Assembly: GCA_031181385.1 (NCBI GenBank)
Contig: JAPSKV010000013.1
Span: forward strand, 11,321-75,320
Reading direction: 5' to 3'
DNA: 64,000 nucleotides
Origin: Fredinandcohnia onubensis
Lineage (GTDB): Bacteria > Bacillota > Bacilli > Bacillales > Bacillaceae_L
The notes beneath the pieces were generated by a model. That model was given only the letters and a program-made list of their open reading frames with translations, did not search any database and had not been told where the DNA came from. A program made the position numbers and the translations under genes. Below are positions 1,993 to 40,990 of this stretch, one piece after another; the stretch's first letter is position 1; each line of letters starts with the position of its first letter.

Positions 1993-3255
1993 ATGCATTA
2001 TGGCTGGGTAGTGGTTTGGATTACATTCGTTGCGGTATTGATTGCTGCTGGAATCCGCTCAATTACAGGTGTTATTTTAATTCCGCTTGAACAAGAGTTT
2101 GAGTGGAGCCGTTCGTCTATTTCATTTGCATTTGCTATTAATCTCATACTCTATGGAATTTCAGGTCCGTTCATTGCTGCAGGGCTTGAGAGATTAGGCG
2201 TTCGAAAAATCATGGCTTACTCGATGGTCCTGTTGGTCATTGGGCTAATTACAAGTCTTTATATGACACATATTTGGCAGCTCCATCTCATTTGGGGAGT
2301 CATTATTGGGATAGGTTCAGGCGTTTTCCTGTCCGTTCTTTCTGCAAATATCGCAACGATTTGGTTTGAAGATAAACGTGGAATGGTCTTGGGTCTACTC
2401 ATGGCTGCAACTGCAGCGGGGCAAATGATCTTTTTACCGTTATTGTCATTTTTAACTGAGGAATTCTCCTGGAGAATGGGGATGACTGTATTCATTGGAC
2501 TCGGCCTCCTAATAACTCCAATTATCTTCATCTGGATGAAGGATCATCCGCGTGATAAGGGACTTCTTCCTTATGGAGCGACCAAGGAAGAAGTGAAAAA
2601 TGAAACGAAAAAGAATCCAATCACATCCGCCTTTGAAGTGCTATGGATTGGAATGCGATCCGTACCGTTTTGGTTACTGTCAGGTAGTTTCTTCATCTGC
2701 GGGTTATCAACCGCTGGGCTTTTAGGTACACATTTTATCCCAGCCTCAACCCACCATGGAATTCCCGAGGTTCACGCAGCGAGCATTTTCGCGTTCATGG
2801 GGGTTTTTAATATAATCGGAACGATGATTGCGGGCTGGTTATCTGATCGATTCGATAACCGCTGGCTCTTATTTTGGTTTTATGGTCTTCGAGGACTGTC
2901 GTTACTTGTGTTGCCGTACGCTCTGCAGATGCAGTCATATGTGATGCTTATCGCCTTTGCCGTGTTTTATGGATTAGACTGGATTGCTACGGTTCCACCA
3001 ACGGTTCGACTCGCAGCTGACTTTTTCGGAAAAGTAAATGGGCCAATTGTTTATGGATGGGTATTTGCAGCCCACCAGATCGGGTCAGGTGTTGCTGCGT
3101 ATTTGGGAGGATATTTTTACGAGGTCTTCCATAGCTACACCATCACGTTTCTATCCGCGGGAGTCCTATGTATCATCGCAACACTGTTTGTATTAATCAT
3201 AAAAAAACAAGCCAACACCATCGCTCAAAGCCCTGAGGTTTCAGTTGGGAAGTAA
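1993..3255 (+). CDS. MFS transporter
   Basis: About 12 hydrophobic segments; motif A-like GWLSDRFDNR; RBS GGAG before ATG 1993. Confidence 0.9.
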   Translation: MHYGWVVVWITFVAVLIAAGIRSITGVILIPLEQEFEWSRSSISFAFAINLILYGISGPFIAAGLERLGVRKIMAYSMVLLVIGLITSLYMTHIWQLHLIWGVIIGIGSGVFLSVLSANIATIWFEDKRGMVLGLLMAATAAGQMIFLPLLSFLTEEFSWRMGMTVFIGLGLLITPIIFIWMKDHPRDKGLLPYGATKEEVKNETKKNPITSAFEVLWIGMRSVPFWLLSGSFFICGLSTAGLLGTHFIPASTHHGIPEVHAASIFAFMGVFNIIGTMIAGWLSDRFDNRWLLFWFYGLRGLSLLVLPYALQMQSYVMLIAFAVFYGLDWIATVPPTVRLAADFFGKVNGPIVYGWVFAAHQIGSGVAAYLGGYFYEVFHSYTITFLSAGVLCIIATLFVLIIKKQANTIAQSPEVSVGK

Positions 3256-3279
3256 AGAGGTATCAAAAAACAACGGAGG

Positions 3280-3453
3280 TCATCGCCCCCGTTGTTTTTC
3301 ATTCTCCACAACCGATTCTTTAATCAACGCTTTGCAACACATTACAATACCAGAGAGAAATGCCGTAATGGTGTAGCCAAAGGGTAAGTAAAAAAAGCAA
3401 AACAATGTTGAGACAAACAACCAAATGAGCCAAAAGAGTAACTCTTTATTCAT
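3280..3453 (-). CDS. Small hydrophobic protein overlapping the spoIIP stop
   Basis: ATG overlaps last codons of spoIIP (ATGAATAA); two hydrophobic stretches; weak RBS. Confidence 0.45.
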   Translation of the reverse strand: MNKELLFWLIWLFVSTLFCFFYLPFGYTITAFLSGIVMCCKALIKESVVENEKQRGR

Positions 3454-4597
3454 TCGTTGCATTCACTTTCTCGGCATCGATGATATGTTCACTGATTACT
3501 TTTGCGAGCGCCTCAACGGTATTTTTTATTTCTTTCATGTCATTGTCGACGCCGCCGACCTCAATGAGAATAGAGTTCTCTGCTAAGTCTTGATTATACA
3601 CTCCGTTTCCTTGGTCAAGTCCCTTTCCAACCACACCCCTGCTGATTCCGGGAAACTGTGCTTCGATTGACTTATCTAGAGACTCGGCTAAGGCTAAGCT
3701 ACGCTCAAAATGACGACTCGCTTTACCGACGACAAAAAATACTCTGGCATATGGTTTATTGTTAATGGTAACAGTCGTCACATCTTTTCGAACACTATCA
3801 CGATGAATATCAATTAAAAAGTCTATATCCGAGTCACTTGCCATTGCCGATTGGACGATCTCACGTGAGACTGCATAAGATTTAGTAGTGCTCCACCCTT
3901 TTTTCTTCAATTTCTGCCCAATATTTGTTTTATCGACTACCGCCCCAACTCCGTATTTTTCTAACTCCTTCCCAAGAAGTTCGCCAACAACTGTGATGTT
4001 TGTTTTAGAATCAACCGCTTTATTCATATCTGGGTCATTAGTAAGTCCAAGGAGAGGTAAGTAAGATTCATAACTGTGAGAGTGGTAGATCAATACCTTT
4101 TTATCGGTGGCTAGATTTACGGGTGGTGTTTTCGGATCTTCCTTACTAAACTCCTCCAATTCCTTTTGAGCCATTTCTCTTTCTTGTAATAAGACATCTA
4201 AAGGTGGGGCTGATTCGTATGGGAGATTGGTGAAATCTGTCCCCTCCCCAGATACCAGGATTTCGGTATGATACAAAGATAACCCGGGTAGTTCATGACC
4301 GAAAAAGCTTCGTAAGTCACCGTATTTAAATTGAAGGGTTGATTCTATTAAGATTTTTGTGAAAGAATCCTGTTCTACCGTTAAAGATTGTCCGAAATAG
4401 GCATTTTCAGATTCAAGTAATTTCACAAAAAACTCAGTTGGAAAGGTTCGAATGTTAACATCGATTTCACGAAAATTAATCAAATCTCTTTTAATAGAGG
4501 ATATGCTTGATGCAGCAGCAAAACAAATGAGTACGGTTAAGATAAACAAAAGGGCGATTCTTGGAAGAAAAAATTGTCCATACCCTGAATTTTTCAT
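3446..4597 (-). CDS. spoIIP: Stage II sporulation protein P paralogue (cell wall amidase/endopeptidase)
   Basis: N-terminal TM; IYHSHSYESY, IDIHRD, GVYNQDL and LIEVGG motifs typical of SpoIIP. Confidence 0.85.
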   Translation of the reverse strand: MKNSGYGQFFLPRIALLFILTVLICFAAASSISSIKRDLINFREIDVNIRTFPTEFFVKLLESENAYFGQSLTVEQDSFTKILIESTLQFKYGDLRSFFGHELPGLSLYHTEILVSGEGTDFTNLPYESAPPLDVLLQEREMAQKELEEFSKEDPKTPPVNLATDKKVLIYHSHSYESYLPLLGLTNDPDMNKAVDSKTNITVVGELLGKELEKYGVGAVVDKTNIGQKLKKKGWSTTKSYAVSREIVQSAMASDSDIDFLIDIHRDSVRKDVTTVTINNKPYARVFFVVGKASRHFERSLALAESLDKSIEAQFPGISRGVVGKGLDQGNGVYNQDLAENSILIEVGGVDNDMKEIKNTVEALAKVISEHIIDAEKVNATNE

Positions 4598-32421: not shown

Positions 32422-33378
32422 ATGATGGGACATCACCATCACCACCATCATCACGGTCACGACCATCATGGTCACCATCACCATCACCATCATCATTTTG
32501 ATGAAGTTAGGGAAGGCAATAAAAAAGGCTTACTCATAGCTCTAATCATTACAACTGGAATCATGCTGCTGGAATTTTTCGGAGGTCTTATTACAAACAG
32601 TTTAGCTTTGTTATCAGATTCAGGTCATATGCTTAGTGATGCAAGTTCATTAGCATTAAGCTTAGTTGCATTTTGGTTTGCTACCCGACCTGCATCACCG
32701 AAGAAGACCTATGGGTTTTACCGATTTGAGATTTTAGCCGCCCTTTTTAATGCAGTTACACTGTTTGTCATTGCTGGTTTTATCGTTTATGAGGCATTTC
32801 ATCGATTTTTCGAGCCTCCGACTGTAGCAAGTGGAACGATGATGATTATTGCTGGAATTGGTCTTTTGGCGAATATACTGAGTGCTTGGTCACTGATTAG
32901 TAAAGGCGATGTAAAAAACAACGTTAATCTAAGGAGCGCATACCTCCATGTTCTTGGAGATGCACTTGGATCAGTGGGTGCCATAATCGCAGGACTCTTG
33001 ATGCTGATGTTTGAATGGTATATAGCGGATCCCATTATTTCTGTAGTTGTCGCAATCCTGATTTTAAAAAGTGCATGGGGTGTGTTAACACATTCGATTC
33101 ATATTTTAATGGAAGGTACGCCGATTACGATTGATCAAAAAGAAGTGAAAGCCACCCTTGAAGAAATTGAAGGAGTAATTGATGTTCATGATCTTCACAT
33201 TTGGACGATCACATCAGGCATTGATTCGCTCACCTGTCATATTTTAATCAAAGACGACCATGACAGCCAGGAAATTTTACAGCAATCCATTGATAAAATA
33301 CGTGACAAATTCAAAATCGAACATACCACCATTCAAATTGAAAAATCATCGATTGAGCATGGGGAAATGCGAGTATAG
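32422..33378 (+). CDS. czcD: CDF zinc/cobalt/cadmium exporter with His-rich N-terminus
   Basis: LALLSDSGHMLSD, AYLHVLGDALGS, HDLHIWTI, HTTIQIE; 19 His in first 25 residues. Confidence 0.93.
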   Translation: MMGHHHHHHHHGHDHHGHHHHHHHHFDEVREGNKKGLLIALIITTGIMLLEFFGGLITNSLALLSDSGHMLSDASSLALSLVAFWFATRPASPKKTYGFYRFEILAALFNAVTLFVIAGFIVYEAFHRFFEPPTVASGTMMIIAGIGLLANILSAWSLISKGDVKNNVNLRSAYLHVLGDALGSVGAIIAGLLMLMFEWYIADPIISVVVAILILKSAWGVLTHSIHILMEGTPITIDQKEVKATLEEIEGVIDVHDLHIWTITSGIDSLTCHILIKDDHDSQEILQQSIDKIRDKFKIEHTTIQIEKSSIEHGEMRV

Positions 33379-33483
33379 AAATCTCTAAAGGGGCATCCAA
33401 GAATGGAAGGCCCCTTCTTTTAATAAAAGGCATTTATATTGTAAAATAAAAGTATCTACGGTTTTTTATTAGGAGATGGAGAA

Positions 33484-37930: not shown

Positions 37931-38120
37931 GTAAACTACAAATTTGGAGGAAAACACATATTCCCTTGCAAACTATAAAAAGTATAAAAAGCACTTGACA
38001 ATTCTAGAAAAAATAAAAATGCTAGTATGTTTTTAGTTCAATAGTATGATATGATAAGAGTATGTCATCAAAAGGCCTTTCATTCTTAGTGCTATTAAGA
38101 ATGAAAAGGGGATTTTTGAT

Positions 38121-38690
38121 TTGAAGAAAAGAACATGGACGTATGAAGAAATAGAGTTTTTGAAGGACAATGTAGGCCGTATGAAAATCTCTACCATTGC
38201 CAATCACGTAGAACGAACGGAAACGGCAGTTGAGTTAAAGATTAAAAGATTAGGGCTTTCGAACACCAAGTCCTTTACAGGTCAATTGACAATGCATGAA
38301 TTGGCGACTCTATTAAAAATTGATCCAAAGTCTGTAAAGCTATGGATTGATAACCATGGACTAAGGTACACAAAAAAGGCAACGCGAAATACACGAAAAT
38401 TTTACTTTATTAAACCCGAAGATTTTTGGGATTGGGCGAAGAATAATAAAAGCCGAATTGACTTCTCGAAAATTGAAAAAAATGCTATCGTTCCTGAACC
38501 ATGTTGGGTGGAAGGAGAGCGTTCAAAGCAAAAGAGGGTCAATTATCGAGCGTGGACAACAGTAGAAATTAACTCCATGATTGAGCTTGTGGCAACAGGT
38601 ACTCCGTTTACCGACATTGGAAAAAGACTAAACCGTAGCCCAATTAGCATCCAACGTAAATACCAGCGTATGAGCAAAGCAGTGAAATAA
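38121..38690 (+). CDS. Hypothetical DNA-binding protein with terminal Myb/HTH-like repeats
   Basis: WTYEEIEFL..TAVELKIKRLGL and WTTVEINSM..IGKRLNRSPISIQRK; TTG start with AAGGGG RBS; basic. Confidence 0.7.
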   Translation: MKKRTWTYEEIEFLKDNVGRMKISTIANHVERTETAVELKIKRLGLSNTKSFTGQLTMHELATLLKIDPKSVKLWIDNHGLRYTKKATRNTRKFYFIKPEDFWDWAKNNKSRIDFSKIEKNAIVPEPCWVEGERSKQKRVNYRAWTTVEINSMIELVATGTPFTDIGKRLNRSPISIQRKYQRMSKAVK

Positions 38691-38713
38691 ATACATCATT
38701 GATAAAAACCAAA

Positions 38714-38800
38714 CTATACAAAAGGCAAAATTGTTGAAAGACAATGACGCAAAGCCACGGGCCTAAGGAGGATTCCTCTATGGTGGCCGGGTTGCTATAG
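38714..38800 (+). ncRNA. Cyclic di-GMP-I (GEMM) riboswitch aptamer
   Basis: GGCAAA-ATTGTT-GAAA-GACAAT-GACGCAAAGCCACGGGCCTAA..TATGGTGGCCGGGTTGC with closing CTATA/TATAG, matching the recalled consensus and GNRA tetraloop. Confidence 0.9.
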
Positions 38801-38828
38801 AATGGAAGGGTTCCTTTAATTGATGACG

Positions 38829-38873
38829 AAAAAATGGGAGATACTAGTTGAATAACTAGTTCTCCCATTTTTT
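38829..38873. terminator. Bidirectional intrinsic terminator
   Basis: AAAAAATGGGAGATACTAGTT-gaat-AACTAGTTCTCCCATTTTTT. Confidence 0.85.
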
Positions 38874-38879
38874 AGAGGA

Positions 38880-39081
38880 TGTTCAAAAAGTCCGGTGAAA
38901 TTGACACATCGAATTTCTTCGTTGGCTTGTTTTTCCGTTGCTCACGTATTAACTACATACGTTCCACTACTCAAAACTGCACCGCCTCGAACTTTCGACG
39001 CACAGGACGTGCTAGTGTCGACAATGCCACAGGACGTGGCGTTTTTGTCGACGTGGTCCTTTTCATCCTCCTTTTTGAACA
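38880..39081. mobile_element. MITE-like repeat, long variant
   Basis: 11-bp terminal IR TGTTCAAAAAG/CTTTTTGAACA; aligns end to end with 63155-63296 apart from a 58-bp insert. Confidence 0.75.
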
Positions 39082-39092
39082 AGCATATTACA

Positions 39093-39203
39093 TTATTGAT
39101 CAAGTGAATTATCATCTAATTCTTTAACACCGTTCATAATTTGCACTGCAAAACCGACACAAACTAGAATAAGACTAAAAACAAGAAAATATGCTACAAA
39201 CAT
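39093..39203 (-). CDS. 36-aa single-TM peptide
   Basis: GAGGTGA RBS, ATG..TAA; MFVAYFLVFSLILVCVGFAVQIMNGVKELDDNSLDQ. Confidence 0.6.
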   Translation of the reverse strand: MFVAYFLVFSLILVCVGFAVQIMNGVKELDDNSLDQ

Positions 39204-39406: not shown

Positions 39407-40990
39407 ATGAGCTATATAGATGAAGTTCAAAAACGAAGAACGTTTGCCATCATCTCCCACCCGGATGCAGGTAAAACGACGATGACGGAGAAATTATTAT
39501 ATTTTGGTAATGTAATTCGTGAAACAGGAACGGTAAAAGGAAAAAAATCAGGAAAATTTGCTGCGTCGGACTGGATGGAGATTGAAAAGCAACGTGGAAT
39601 TTCTGTTACATCAAGTGTTATGAGTTTTCCATACGAGAACTTCTATGTCAATATTCTTGATACACCAGGACACGAGGACTTCAGTGAGGACACCTATCGT
39701 ACGTTAACAGCTGTGGACAGTGTTGTGATGATCATCGACTCCACGAAGGGCGTCGAGCCCCAAACGATTAAACTATTTAAAGTTTGTCGCATGAGAGGCA
39801 TTCCGATTTTCACATTCATTAATAAGCTTGACCGAGAAGGAAAGGATCCACTTGAACTCTTAGCCGAAATTGAAGAGGTTCTTGGTATTGAATCGTATCC
39901 AATGAACTGGCCAGTTGGAATGGGGAAACGATTCTTAGGGATTGTCGACCGTTACAACAATCAATTTGTGCATTTTACTGGAAATGAAGATGAAAAAATC
40001 ATTTCATTACAGGAGCTTGAGGACGGCAAGCATCGTGGAATTACAGATACTCCGATTTACGAAAGTACACAAGATGAGTTACTTTTATTGGACGAAGCAG
40101 GAAATGATTTTGATGTGGAACGTGTAGCCAAAGGTGAACTAACGCCTGTATTCTTTGGTAGTGCGCTCGCAAACTTTGGTGTAGAAACGTTTTTTAATAC
40201 ATTTTTACAATTTGCTTCAGAACCGAAGCCACGTAAAACAAATCTTGGCTTAATTCCACCAGAGGACGAAACGTTCTCAGGTTATATTTTCAAAATCCAA
40301 GCAAACATGAACACGAAGCACCGCGACCGAATTGCATTCTTGCGCGTTTGCTCAGGGAAGTTTGAACGTGGAATGAGTGTCAACATCACTCGTACAGGAA
40401 AATCAATCAAGCTCAATCAAACTCAGCAGTTTATGGCAGCAAGTCGTGAAACAGTAGATGAGGCTTATCCTGGCGATATTATAGGGATTTATGATCCAAA
40501 TGTCTACCAAATCGGTGATACACTTACAGCCGGTAAAGAAGATATGCATTATCAGGAACTACCTGTGTTCCCACCTGAAATGTATCGTAAGGTTCGTGTA
40601 AAGAACGTAATGAAGGCAAAGCAATTTAGAAAAGGTATTGAACAGCTCGTTCAAGAAGGAGCAATTCAATTATTCAGACAGGAATCAAGTGATGAGTTCA
40701 TTCTTGGTGCGGTTGGTCAACTTCAATATGATGTGTTTGAATATCGATTAGAGGGAGAATATAATGTCTCTGTTGAGTTCACTTCACTTGGAAATAGAAT
40801 CCCAAGATGGATTGGCAATAAAGATGTAGATACTCGTCTATTTGATTCAAGAAGTCTACTTGTCCGGGACCGTAACGACCGATATGTCGTGTTATTTGAA
40901 AACGACTTTACGTATCGTTATTTCCAAGATAAAAACAAGGACGTTGAACTCATCGACCTCTATGAAAGCAATGACTATAAAGGTGTATAA
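39407..40990 (+). CDS. prfC: Peptide chain release factor 3
   Basis: [51 protein letters not shown]. Confidence 0.97.

Follow-up and report, generated by a model that had tools for sequence, protein, structure and literature searches.

A c-di-GMP-I riboswitch aptamer behind a DNA-binding-protein gene in Fredinandcohnia onubensis, with an adjacent linker complementary to the 5'UTR of the same gene

A c-di-GMP-I aptamer downstream of a 189-aa DNA-binding-protein gene

The analyzed window comprises 64,000 nucleotides of the F. onubensis contig JAPSKV010000013.1 (assembly GCA_031181385.1, positions 11,321 to 75,320, forward strand). It harbors an open reading frame at 38121..38690 (+) encoding a 189-aa protein with Myb/SANT-like N- and C-terminal repeats and a central HTH_17/MerR-like domain. 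Homologs are named “DNA-binding protein” in Fredinandcohnia, yet Pfam, NCBIfam and PDB sequence searches yielded only sub-threshold Myb/HTH matches (Pfam Myb_DNA-binding 4.7e-5, HTH_17 3.3e-4). The stop codon is followed after 23 nt by a match to Rfam RF01051 (c-di-GMP-I, GEMM-I) at 38714-38799 (+), which covers the full model (positions 1-87 of 87) with 83.6 bits against a gathering score of 35 (E = 5e-15), and in which the conserved junction motifs (GGCAAA, GACGCAAAGC, CUAA and GCC..GG) agree with the consensus. Orthologous hits in relatives score 66-84 bits, and across 13 sequences 6 of 21 predicted pairs of the aptamer helices change on both sides with almost none broken. The 5' strand of helix P1 (CUAUA) maps to 38714-18 and is extended by a CCA at 38709-11 that can pair with UGG at 38803-05 and is kept in most lineages.

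A strong bidirectional intrinsic terminator (38829-38873) starts about 30 nt after the aptamer. It consists of a long perfect 33-nt hairpin at 38835-38867 flanked by A6 (38829-34) and U6 (38868-73), and is the dominant feature of the minimum free energy fold (z = -5.2), although a simple terminator scan missed it because of the length of its stem. The stem sequence varies among species with compensatory changes. In the predicted layout the terminator forms the 3' end both of the gene/riboswitch transcript and of the transcript of a convergent gene encoding a conserved hydrophobic 36-aa peptide (39203..39093, minus strand), which is probably a neighbor rather than a target. This is the only other called gene before prfC, which starts at 39407, and no same-strand gene lies close downstream of the aptamer. 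The preliminary description of this locus had pointed out precisely this arrangement, namely a c-di-GMP-I aptamer in a 3' position with a terminator behind it, no antiterminator pairing and the next same-strand gene (prfC) more than 500 nt away, and this observation is confirmed. One correction concerns the 534-nt gap, of which about 217 nt (about 38872-39088) is an insertion of a MITE-like repeat that near-identical strains lack at this site, so that in the ancestral layout the terminator abuts the stop codon of the 36-aa gene. The element (38874..39088) carries 26-nt terminal inverted repeats (38880-905 and 39056-081) and a two-hairpin Bacillaceae-1 motif at 39065..38999 on the minus strand (Rfam RF01690, 42.5 bits, gathering score 35), displays about 30-fold the depth of the flanking sequence with many different flanks, and is not part of the switch.

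The gene-then-aptamer order is kept in 17 to about 20 Fredinandcohnia-group genomes, in Aquibacillus, and in metagenomic relatives with 62-68% protein identity. In relatives that do have downstream genes, these genes carry additional aptamers of their own. In an Anoxybacillaceae MAG (locus L022), the homologous gene has a c-di-GMP-I aptamer plus terminators in the ordinary 5' position, pointing at this gene family as a c-di-GMP-riboswitch target in its own right. Folding of this 5' riboswitch did not reveal the sign of regulation, as both terminators form in every model.

Complementarity between the 3' linker and the 5'UTR

The 30-nt linker between aptamer and terminator (AGAAUGGAAGG..CCUU..UUGAUGAC) is nearly invariant across genera, whereas the flanking intergenic DNA diverges. 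Within the segment 38796..38827 (+), the P1 3' strand UAUAG (38796-800) overlaps AGAAUGGAAGG (38799-809, H1), followed by CCUU (38813-16, H2) and UUGAUGAC (38820-27, H3). We found this linker to be complementary to the 5' end of the predicted mRNA of the upstream gene (GUCAUCAA-AAGG-CCUUUCAUUCU, 38064-38086). Here, GUCAUCAA (38064-71) and AAGG (38072-75) would act as tether strands pairing with H3 and H2, respectively, whereas the adjacent anti-SD strand CCUUUCAUUCUUA (38076..38088) pairs either with the Shine-Dalgarno (SD) strand in cis or with AGAAUGGAAGG of the linker. The SD strand (UAAGAAUGAAAAGG-GGAUUUUUGAU, 38096..38123) includes the SD sequence at about 38105-38112 and the UUG start codon at 38121-23, and is sequestered in a hairpin in the minimum free energy fold of the 5'UTR (-20.4 kcal/mol). 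This hairpin is conserved in exactly the lineages that have the 3' aptamer and linker and is absent in homologs without one (L020, L023 and L039-41), although one metagenomic relative (L054) keeps hairpin and linker without a detectable aptamer. A putative extended -10 element (TGaTATGAT, 38047..38055) would place the start of transcription near 38062 and thus GUCAUCAA at the very 5' end of the mRNA. The block is conserved across Fredinandcohnia 5' regions, and a -10-like hexamer lies 7-9 nt upstream of GUC(A/G)U in the other lineages, yet this promoter is an inference from sequence and was not called by a consensus scan, as a -35 element is lacking.

Duplex predictions yielded 22-30 bp and -26 to -36 kcal/mol across lineages, with -27 kcal/mol at the present locus. 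Energy alone does not single out the 5'UTR, as a few unrelated sites within the 64-kb window, among them purine-rich or palindromic chance sites, score as well or better. We therefore relied on ranking within each locus and on covariation. The 5'UTR of the gene is the best partner of the linker in the whole locus, on both strands, in 9 of 10 lineages (z = -4.8 to -6.9), and cognate partners beat swapped partners in all 20000 permutations. GUCAUCAA:UUGAUGAC becomes GUCGUCAA:UUGACGAC in lineage L050 and GUCAUUAU:AUAAUGAC in L051, whereas AAGG:CCUU becomes AUGAGUG:CACUCAU (L048 and L051), AGGUUA:UAAUCU (L021) and AAAG:UUUU (L017). Overall, 95.5% of cells are paired and 6 of 22 pairs change on both sides, with a covariation score of 0.231 compared with 0.113 for shuffles (0 of 500 as high) and at most 0.082 for slid partners. 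It has to be considered that the helix segments were cut by hand at fixed length from the duplex predictions, since MAFFT alignment of 5'UTR-linker chimeras placed H3 out of register, which biases the count towards pairing, and that the lineages are related, leaving about 4-6 independent covariation events. In L048 and L051 the 5'UTR segment AUGAGUG has a perfect partner in the linker but none in the cis SD strand; complementarity is therefore not a by-product of the linker resembling the SD strand. G·U pairs render the sense-strand duplex more stable than the antisense one in 10 of 11 lineages.

To explore whether P1 and H1 compete, both mRNA ends were folded in a cis model joined by a 12-A spacer. 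With P1 enforced, only the tether forms (12-18 bp) and the SD hairpin stays closed, whereas unconstrained folding yields H1 (27-32 bp) with opening of P1 and the SD hairpin in 4 of 8 lineages, the two states lying only 0.4-3.4 kcal/mol apart, a difference that a ligand could tip. In the other 4 lineages the structure is nearly the same with and without P1 enforced. Moreover, P1 and the core of H1 overlap by only 2 nt, and mutual exclusion relies on the weaker CCA:UGG extension of P1 and on a GCUA:UAGU extension of H1, leaving gating and its sign uncertain.

Interpretation as a proposed split expression platform and alternative readings

Collectively, these results are best explained by a c-di-GMP-I riboswitch whose expression platform is split between the two ends of one mRNA, a model that we hold with moderate confidence. 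In this view, the 189-aa gene is transcribed from about 38062 to the terminator at 38873, and its 5'UTR folds into a long hairpin burying the SD sequence and the start codon, while its 3'UTR holds the aptamer and a linker that is an imperfect copy of the SD strand. H3 and H2 would tether the 3'UTR to the extreme 5' end of the message, such that AGAAUGGAAGG could invade the hairpin by pairing with the anti-SD strand CCUUUCAUUCU, free the SD and switch translation on. As the same linker nucleotides (UAUAG-AA-UGG) form the 3' strand of P1 and its extension, ligand binding should lock P1 and hold the linker back, so that translation of the regulator would probably be off at high c-di-GMP. The analysis establishes the aptamer as a family match, the SD hairpin, the conserved and covarying complementarity of both ends, and the overlap of P1 with H1, whereas c-di-GMP binding, co-transcription and hence action in cis, translation initiation as the output and the sign of the response are inferred. 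No terminator lies between the reading frame and the aptamer, but the three metatranscriptome runs that hold the locus are assembled contigs with erratic, amplicon-like depth (a 429-nt and a 234-nt piece at about 10-fold depth) that give neither ends nor strand, so co-transcription and the start site rest on sequence alone.

The interpretation given in the preliminary description is partly supported. A 3'-UTR role, suggested there as control of mRNA stability, is the right general direction, and indeed no downstream gene is under control of the aptamer and no local antiterminator is apparent. The designation as an orphan is, however, wrong, as the aptamer has a conserved partner in the upstream gene, and of the further options raised there, a ligand sponge, antisense control of the peptide mRNA and a relic of gene loss, none accounts for the conserved linker and its covariation.

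Among the alternatives, the same pairing could act in trans, although we consider this unlikely. Aptamer, linker and terminator might accumulate as a separate RNA of about 160 nt, made from a promoter inside the 3' end of the reading frame or by processing of the 3'UTR, that opens the SD hairpin of newly made mRNAs of the neighboring gene, with c-di-GMP gating the availability of the linker. All complementarity and covariation evidence applies equally, the terminator would provide a stable 3' end, and one contig of an RNA run (38527-38760) has about 9-fold the depth of the gene body, which cannot be interpreted with confidence. Terminated riboswitch transcripts acting in trans are also known (Listeria SreA/SreB and EutX/Rli55). 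However, the spacer between stop codon and aptamer is only 10-60 nt and not conserved, no conserved -35/-10 was found at a fixed distance upstream of the aptamer, and strict adjacency to this one gene in every lineage is what cis action predicts. Somewhat less likely still, the pairing may mainly control mRNA stability, by protecting the 5' end from RNase J1/Y or creating an RNase III site, with the aptamer modulating decay rather than ribosome loading. H3 involves the predicted extreme 5' end, a duplex of 22-30 bp could be an RNase III substrate, and a c-di-GMP-bound aptamer stabilizing upstream RNA has a precedent in Vc2 of V. cholerae (bioRxiv 10.1101/617340). This remains a partial rival, yet it does not explain why the linker specifically mimics the SD strand and targets the anti-SD strand of a conserved SD-sequestering hairpin, and the duplex is interrupted by conserved bulges.

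The remaining readings are very unlikely. Ligand-controlled read-through, producing antisense RNA against the 36-aa peptide mRNA or transcription into prfC, would fit the convergent arrangement with a shared terminator that is kept across Fredinandcohnia. However, no pairing with the 5' half of the terminator is visible, the peptide gene is absent next to the aptamer in Aquibacillus and in the metagenomic relatives whose downstream DNA was recovered, the 217-nt repeat separates terminator and peptide gene in this strain with other copies inserted there in relatives, and the linker-5'UTR covariation stays unexplained. A relic, in which the aptamer once led a downstream paralog and the linker (SD-like GGAAGG ... 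AUGACGAAAAAAUGG, reading “MTKKW”) is its decayed 5' end, may well describe the evolutionary origin, given the resemblance of the linker to the SD/start region of the gene (GAAUGAAAAGG..UUGAU-UUG AAG AAA) and the 5' aptamer in L022. As an account of the present state it is contradicted by an aptamer and linker kept under purifying selection with compensatory changes across genera, while the neighboring spacer and terminator stem diverge, and by covarying complementarity that extends to 5'UTR segments without counterpart in the SD strand. Likewise, the small reading frame in the linker (MTKKWE...) runs into the terminator and is not conserved beyond about 4 codons, and was rejected as a coding feature. 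The complementary segments could also be DNA inverted repeats of an invertible or mobile cassette of about 740 bp with the promoter outside it, and invertible switches do lie next to c-di-GMP riboswitches in Clostridioides difficile. Yet the orientation is identical in all of the roughly 30 loci recovered, conserved 3-nt bulges and G·U (not C·A) positions allow only the sense RNA to pair well, no recombinase gene is adjacent, and no strand-switch joints were seen in the available contigs, while raw-read DNA runs of a related study contained no reads on the locus. A ligand sponge, the least likely option, would fit a terminated aptamer transcript without downstream gene but not the strict linkage to one gene, the invariant linker or the 5'UTR covariation, and one aptamer per mRNA is unlikely to titrate the ligand.

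Implications and comparison with known systems

Riboswitches are defined and annotated as 5' leaders acting on the next gene downstream. The furthest-reaching version of our model, which we regard as only slightly more likely than not, is a natural split riboswitch with the aptamer in the 3'UTR, whose switching strand acts across the whole reading frame (about 720 nt) on an SD-sequestering hairpin at the 5' end of the same mRNA, with constitutive tether helices circularizing the message and a ligand-gated strand exchange between P1 and the anti-SD strand setting translation of a Myb-like regulator in response to c-di-GMP. If so, “orphan” or 3'-located riboswitches elsewhere may have upstream targets that current annotation logic cannot see, and target assignment by downstream gene can be wrong. 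A conserved case would widen the repertoire of positions from which riboswitches act and would give a concrete explanation for some orphans. It would further link c-di-GMP signaling in Bacillaceae to an uncharacterized Myb/HTH protein, which in relatives sits among other c-di-GMP-riboswitch-controlled genes (DUF5317, an HD-GYP-type protein), and would offer a portable 3'-end control module for synthetic biology. The design is plausible where transcription outruns translation, as in B. subtilis. Literature searches found no description of a 3' c-di-GMP riboswitch pairing with its own 5'UTR.

Canonical c-di-GMP-I riboswitches such as V. cholerae Vc2/tfoY and Bc1/Bc2 of the B. cereus group (Rfam RF01051; PMC11218506) share the aptamer class with its conserved helices, and P1 is presumably the ligand-stabilized helix whose 3' strand is shared with an alternative pairing. 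Here, however, the aptamer lies 3' of its gene, with no adjacent downstream ORF and no local antiterminator or SD, and the alternative partner lies about 720 nt upstream in the 5'UTR of the preceding gene. Control of upstream RNA by Vc2 (bioRxiv 10.1101/617340) likewise involves a c-di-GMP-I aptamer at the 3' end of an RNA that influences the fate of the sequence upstream of it, but in that case the aptamer also precedes its classical target tfoY and the reported effect is ligand-dependent RNA stability, whereas here no downstream target exists and covarying complementarity to an SD-sequestering 5'UTR hairpin is present. Riboswitches that serve as terminators or long 3'UTRs of upstream genes (PMC7821165) similarly end the upstream transcript at the riboswitch terminator, yet they still control a downstream gene and no function for the upstream mRNA is known, in contrast to the specific complementarity to the upstream 5'UTR found here. 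In riboswitch-derived or riboswitch-controlled regulatory RNAs, such as Listeria SreA/SreB acting on the prfA 5'UTR and EutX/Rli55, an aptamer-containing RNA acts through a separate effector segment on another RNA or protein; these use SAM or B12 aptamers, distant targets and ordinary 5' positions, whereas the proposed target here is the adjacent upstream gene and the effector segment overlaps P1. In the icaR mRNA of Staphylococcus aureus (PMC3868564), the 3'UTR of a regulator's message base-pairs with the ribosome-binding region of its own 5'UTR to set translation, and the conserved complementarity between 3'UTR and translation-initiation region is found at the present locus as well. The icaR 3'UTR, however, pairs with the SD itself, represses and has no ligand sensor, whereas the 3'UTR described here is complementary to the anti-SD strand, is predicted to activate, and is fused to a riboswitch aptamer.

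Genomic context of the c-di-GMP-I aptamer

The c-di-GMP-I model of Rfam (RF01051) matches positions 38714-38799 on the + strand over its full length, with a score of 83.6 bits against a gathering score of 35. The upstream ORF 38121-38690 (+, 189 aa), encoding a putative Myb/HTH protein, ends 23 nt before the aptamer. About 30 nt after the aptamer lies a 33-nt perfect hairpin flanked by A6 and U6 (38829-38873), which dominates the minimum-energy fold with z = -5.2 compared with shuffled sequences. This structure is a bidirectional intrinsic terminator that a simple consensus scan missed only because of its stem length. The next gene on the + strand, prfC, starts at 39407 and was assigned by its Pfam matches GTP_EFTU/RF3_C. 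Two minus-strand features lie in between: a 36-aa hydrophobic ORF (39203..39093) and an Rfam hit for Bacillaceae-1 (39065..38999, 42.5 bits). The observation made in the preliminary description, a c-di-GMP-I aptamer in a 3′ position without an adjacent downstream gene, thus holds. The 36-aa peptide gene (MFVAYFLVFSLILVCVGFAVQIMNGVKELDDNSLDQ) is conserved across Fredinandcohnia, is convergent with the Myb/HTH gene and shares the bidirectional terminator with it; searches of Pfam and NCBIfam returned no family for it.

The apparently empty downstream space is partly an insertion. The encoded proteins place the window in Fredinandcohnia (F. salidurans/onubensis group). A near-identical strain contig (L001) lacks about 210 nt corresponding to positions 38874-39083, and other sequencing runs show the same 217-nt skip, from 38871 to 39089. 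The inserted segment (38874-39088, about 215 nt) carries 26-nt terminal inverted repeats (38880-38905 and 39056-39081), has many different flanks and reaches about 30-fold the depth of the surrounding DNA in a genome run, with the Bacillaceae-1 motif located inside it. It is a MITE-like repeat, and in the ancestral layout the terminator directly abuts the stop codon of the convergent 36-aa gene. Further copies occur in both orientations near the same terminator in relatives (L004, L008, L015, and L016). Some Bacillaceae-1 instances, described in Rfam as sRNA, may therefore be mobile repeats rather than dedicated sRNA genes.

To identify the genes to which the aptamer is linked, homologs of the 189-aa protein were collected from genomes and metagenomes and their loci were scanned with Rfam. 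All 17 Fredinandcohnia-group genomes (L003-L019), three metagenomic contigs (L036-38) and L001 harbor the aptamer (71-84 bits) immediately after this gene, as do Aquibacillus salsiterrae (L021, 60% protein identity) and metagenomic relatives at 62-68% identity (L048-L053), where the neighbors are different, with FapA and STAS genes located upstream. In Aquibacillus and in the metagenomic loci, genes do follow downstream, namely a 54-aa ORF, a DUF5317 gene and a gene for an HD_5/HATPase protein, yet each of these has its own additional c-di-GMP-I aptamer with its own terminator, while the first aptamer remains next to the Myb/HTH gene. In A. salsiterrae, the second, conventional aptamer and its 54-aa ORF (MRKVYYRMKYNWHLSKFKRL..., no family match; L021 positions 3792-3875 and 3912-4076) come with a weak terminator-like hairpin with a U-run and a strong SD. 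Three of the metagenomic relatives carry three c-di-GMP-I aptamers within about 1.8 kb (L048: 2608-2693, 3017-3105, and 3862-3948; L050: 2684-2768, 3305-3391, and 4340-4424; L051: 2107-2191, 2510-2598, and 3358-3443), of which the first follows the Myb/HTH gene, the second precedes a DUF5317 gene and the third, in L048, precedes a gene for an HD_5 (HD-GYP-type) + HATPase protein, forming a dense c-di-GMP riboswitch regulon island. More distant homologs (L020, L023, and L039-41) have no aptamer. In one Anoxybacillaceae MAG (L022), a c-di-GMP-I aptamer (2738-2832) with two terminator-like hairpins lies in the ordinary position upstream of the homologous gene (2998-3564), next to transposase fragments, so that the same gene family is reached by the same ligand through two different architectures. 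The conserved partner of the aptamer is therefore the Myb/HTH gene rather than the peptide gene or prfC, and the element, whose helices show compensatory changes across these lineages, is not a decaying relic.

Complementarity between the 3′ linker and the 5′UTR

Between aptamer and terminator, the sequence GCUAUAGAAUGGAAGG(N3)CCUU(N3)UUGAUGAC is almost invariant, whereas the spacer before the aptamer and the terminator stem vary freely. The 5′UTR of the gene contains an equally conserved long hairpin, AUCAAAA-GG-CCUUUCAUUCUUA [loop] UAAGAAUGAAAAGG-GGA-UUUUGAU-UUG(start), which in the predicted fold buries the Shine-Dalgarno sequence and reaches the start codon, at -20 kcal/mol. This SD hairpin co-occurs with the 3′ aptamer and linker and is missing in homologs that lack them. 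The linker is an imperfect mimic of the SD strand and is complementary to the opposite, anti-SD strand and to the nucleotides 5′ of it, in three helices: H1 (linker AGAAUGGAAGG with 5′UTR CCUUUCAUUCU, 11 bp), H2 (CCUU with AAGG, 4 bp) and H3 (UUGAUGAC with GUCAUCAA, 8 bp), which together give -27 kcal/mol. A conserved extended -10 element (TGaTATGAT, 38047-55) predicts a transcription start at about 38062, and in the other lineages a -10-like hexamer lies 7-9 nt before GUC(A/G)U. By inference, the H3 strand would then be the very 5′ end of the mRNA.

We next asked whether this complementarity exceeds what chance or common descent would produce. Duplex energy alone is not decisive within 64 kb, as a few unrelated sites score as well. 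The terminator hairpin (33388-33420, +) after ORF 32422-33378 carries the exact 11-mer AGAAUGGAAGG in its loop, in the same sense as the invariant linker core, and near-matches (at most 1 mismatch) to the 11-mer or its complement number 7 in the window, including the linker core itself and its 5′UTR partner, against 1.5 expected, which may reflect chance, compositional bias or a second player. Other lines of evidence are stronger. Within each locus, scanning both strands, the gene's own 5′UTR is the best partner of the linker in 9 of 10 lineages, with z from -4.8 to -6.9. Considering only the variable part, cognate linker/5′UTR pairs average -16.9 kcal/mol compared with -12.0 kcal/mol for swapped pairs, and none of 20000 permutations did as well.

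The pairing also covaries. Written as 5′UTR:linker, H3 changes from GUCAUCAA:UUGAUGAC in the window to GUCGUCAA:UUGACGAC in L050 and to GUCAUUAU:AUAAUGAC in L051. H2 changes from AAGG:CCUU to AUGAGUG:CACUCAU (L048/L051), UGAGUG:CUCUUA (L050), AGGUUA:UAAUCU (Aquibacillus) and AAAG:UUUU (L017), and H1 from CAUUC:GAAUG to CGUUC:GAAUG via G·U (L015) and to UAUUC:GAAUA in L054, a metagenomic homolog with 66% identity. On a hand-segmented alignment of nine lineages, 95.5% of cells pair and 6 of 22 pairs (14 cells) change on both sides, yielding a covariation score of 0.231 compared with 0.113 for shuffles (0 of 500 as high) and at most 0.082 for slid partners, although the segments were chosen from duplex predictions, which favors pairing. 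In L048/L051, the 5′UTR segment AUGAGUG has a perfect partner in the linker but none in the cis SD strand; the complementarity is therefore not merely a by-product of the linker being a copy of the SD region. Moreover, G·U pairs make the sense-strand duplex more stable than its antisense counterpart in 10 of 11 lineages, pointing at selection on the + strand RNA rather than on a DNA inverted repeat. L054 (about 2092-2200) keeps a 5′UTR stretch complementary to a covarying linker (GAAUAGAAAGG : CUUUUUAUUC), yet Rfam finds no aptamer there even at E <= 1. Only the 3′ tail of an aptamer seems to remain, so this locus may be a ligand-independent derivative.

Proposed mechanism and alternative explanations

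Helix P1 of the aptamer is formed by CUAUA (38714-18) and UAUAG (38796-800), and in most lineages it can be extended by CCA (38709-11) pairing with UGG (38803-05). H1 uses 38799-38809 and can extend into GCUA:UAGU of the hairpin loop. The same linker nucleotides can therefore belong either to P1 or to H1, which was examined in a cis folding model with the 5′UTR and 3′UTR joined by an inert spacer. With P1 enforced to mimic the ligand-bound state, only the tether H2/H3 remains (12-18 long-range bp) and the SD hairpin stays closed. Without constraint, H1 forms (27-32 bp) and both P1 and the SD hairpin open in the window, L014, L017, and L053, where the two states differ by only 0.4-3.4 kcal/mol, a gap that ligand binding could easily override. 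In the other four lineages the model changes little, so that gating is suggestive rather than demonstrated.

We interpret these data such that H2/H3 tether the mRNA ends; without c-di-GMP, the linker would displace the SD strand and translation would be on, whereas with c-di-GMP, P1 would hold the linker back and translation would be off. The presence of the aptamer and of the SD hairpin, the covarying complementarity and the overlap of P1 with H1 are established by this analysis, whereas c-di-GMP binding, a single transcript, translation as the output and the sign of the response are inferred, the latter from thermodynamic modeling only. In two metatranscriptomic runs, short contigs covering the 5′ part of the gene (38076-38504, 429 nt) or its 3′ end plus half the aptamer (38527-38760, 234 nt) have about 10-fold the depth of their neighbors, while depth is flat in a third run; these pieces look amplicon-like and could not be interpreted. 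The reading of the preliminary description is only partly supported, and the orphan interpretation is replaced here by a specific, testable mechanism that rests on comparative evidence.

Among the alternatives, action in trans as a separate sRNA would involve the same pairing, and only the lack of a conserved promoter and the strict adjacency to the gene argue against it. Control of mRNA stability through 5′-end protection or RNase III is compatible with H3 at the 5′ terminus and with the Vc2 precedent (bioRxiv 10.1101/617340), but does not explain the SD mimicry. Antisense control of the 36-aa gene, another option raised in the preliminary description, is countered by the absence of an antiterminator, by the gene not being a conserved neighbor and by the disruption of the spacing by a repeat. 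A relic of a lost paralog is a plausible origin, because the linker looks like an SD followed by 'MTKKW'; as a description of the present state it is contradicted by conservation and covariation. An invertible DNA cassette is at odds with the same orientation in about 30 loci, with repeats that carry bulges and strand-specific G·U pairs and with the absence of an adjacent recombinase. A ligand sponge explains none of the linkage.

Relation to known systems

By sequence and structure, the aptamer is an ordinary member of the c-di-GMP-I family, and the aptamer class is thus known. The element does not share the positional and architectural feature of this family, as it is not a 5′ leader with an adjacent expression platform, and it is the proposed regulatory architecture that is new. 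Full-text literature searches found no report of a 3′ c-di-GMP riboswitch that pairs with the 5′UTR of its own gene. The closest known systems include the effect of Vc2 on an upstream RNA and the 5′-3′ UTR pairing of icaR (PMC3868564), which has no sensor, pairs with the SD itself and represses. They further include riboswitches that terminate upstream genes and so become their 3′UTRs, for which no function in the upstream mRNA is known (PMC7821165), and the riboswitch-derived trans-acting RNAs SreA/SreB and EutX/Rli55.
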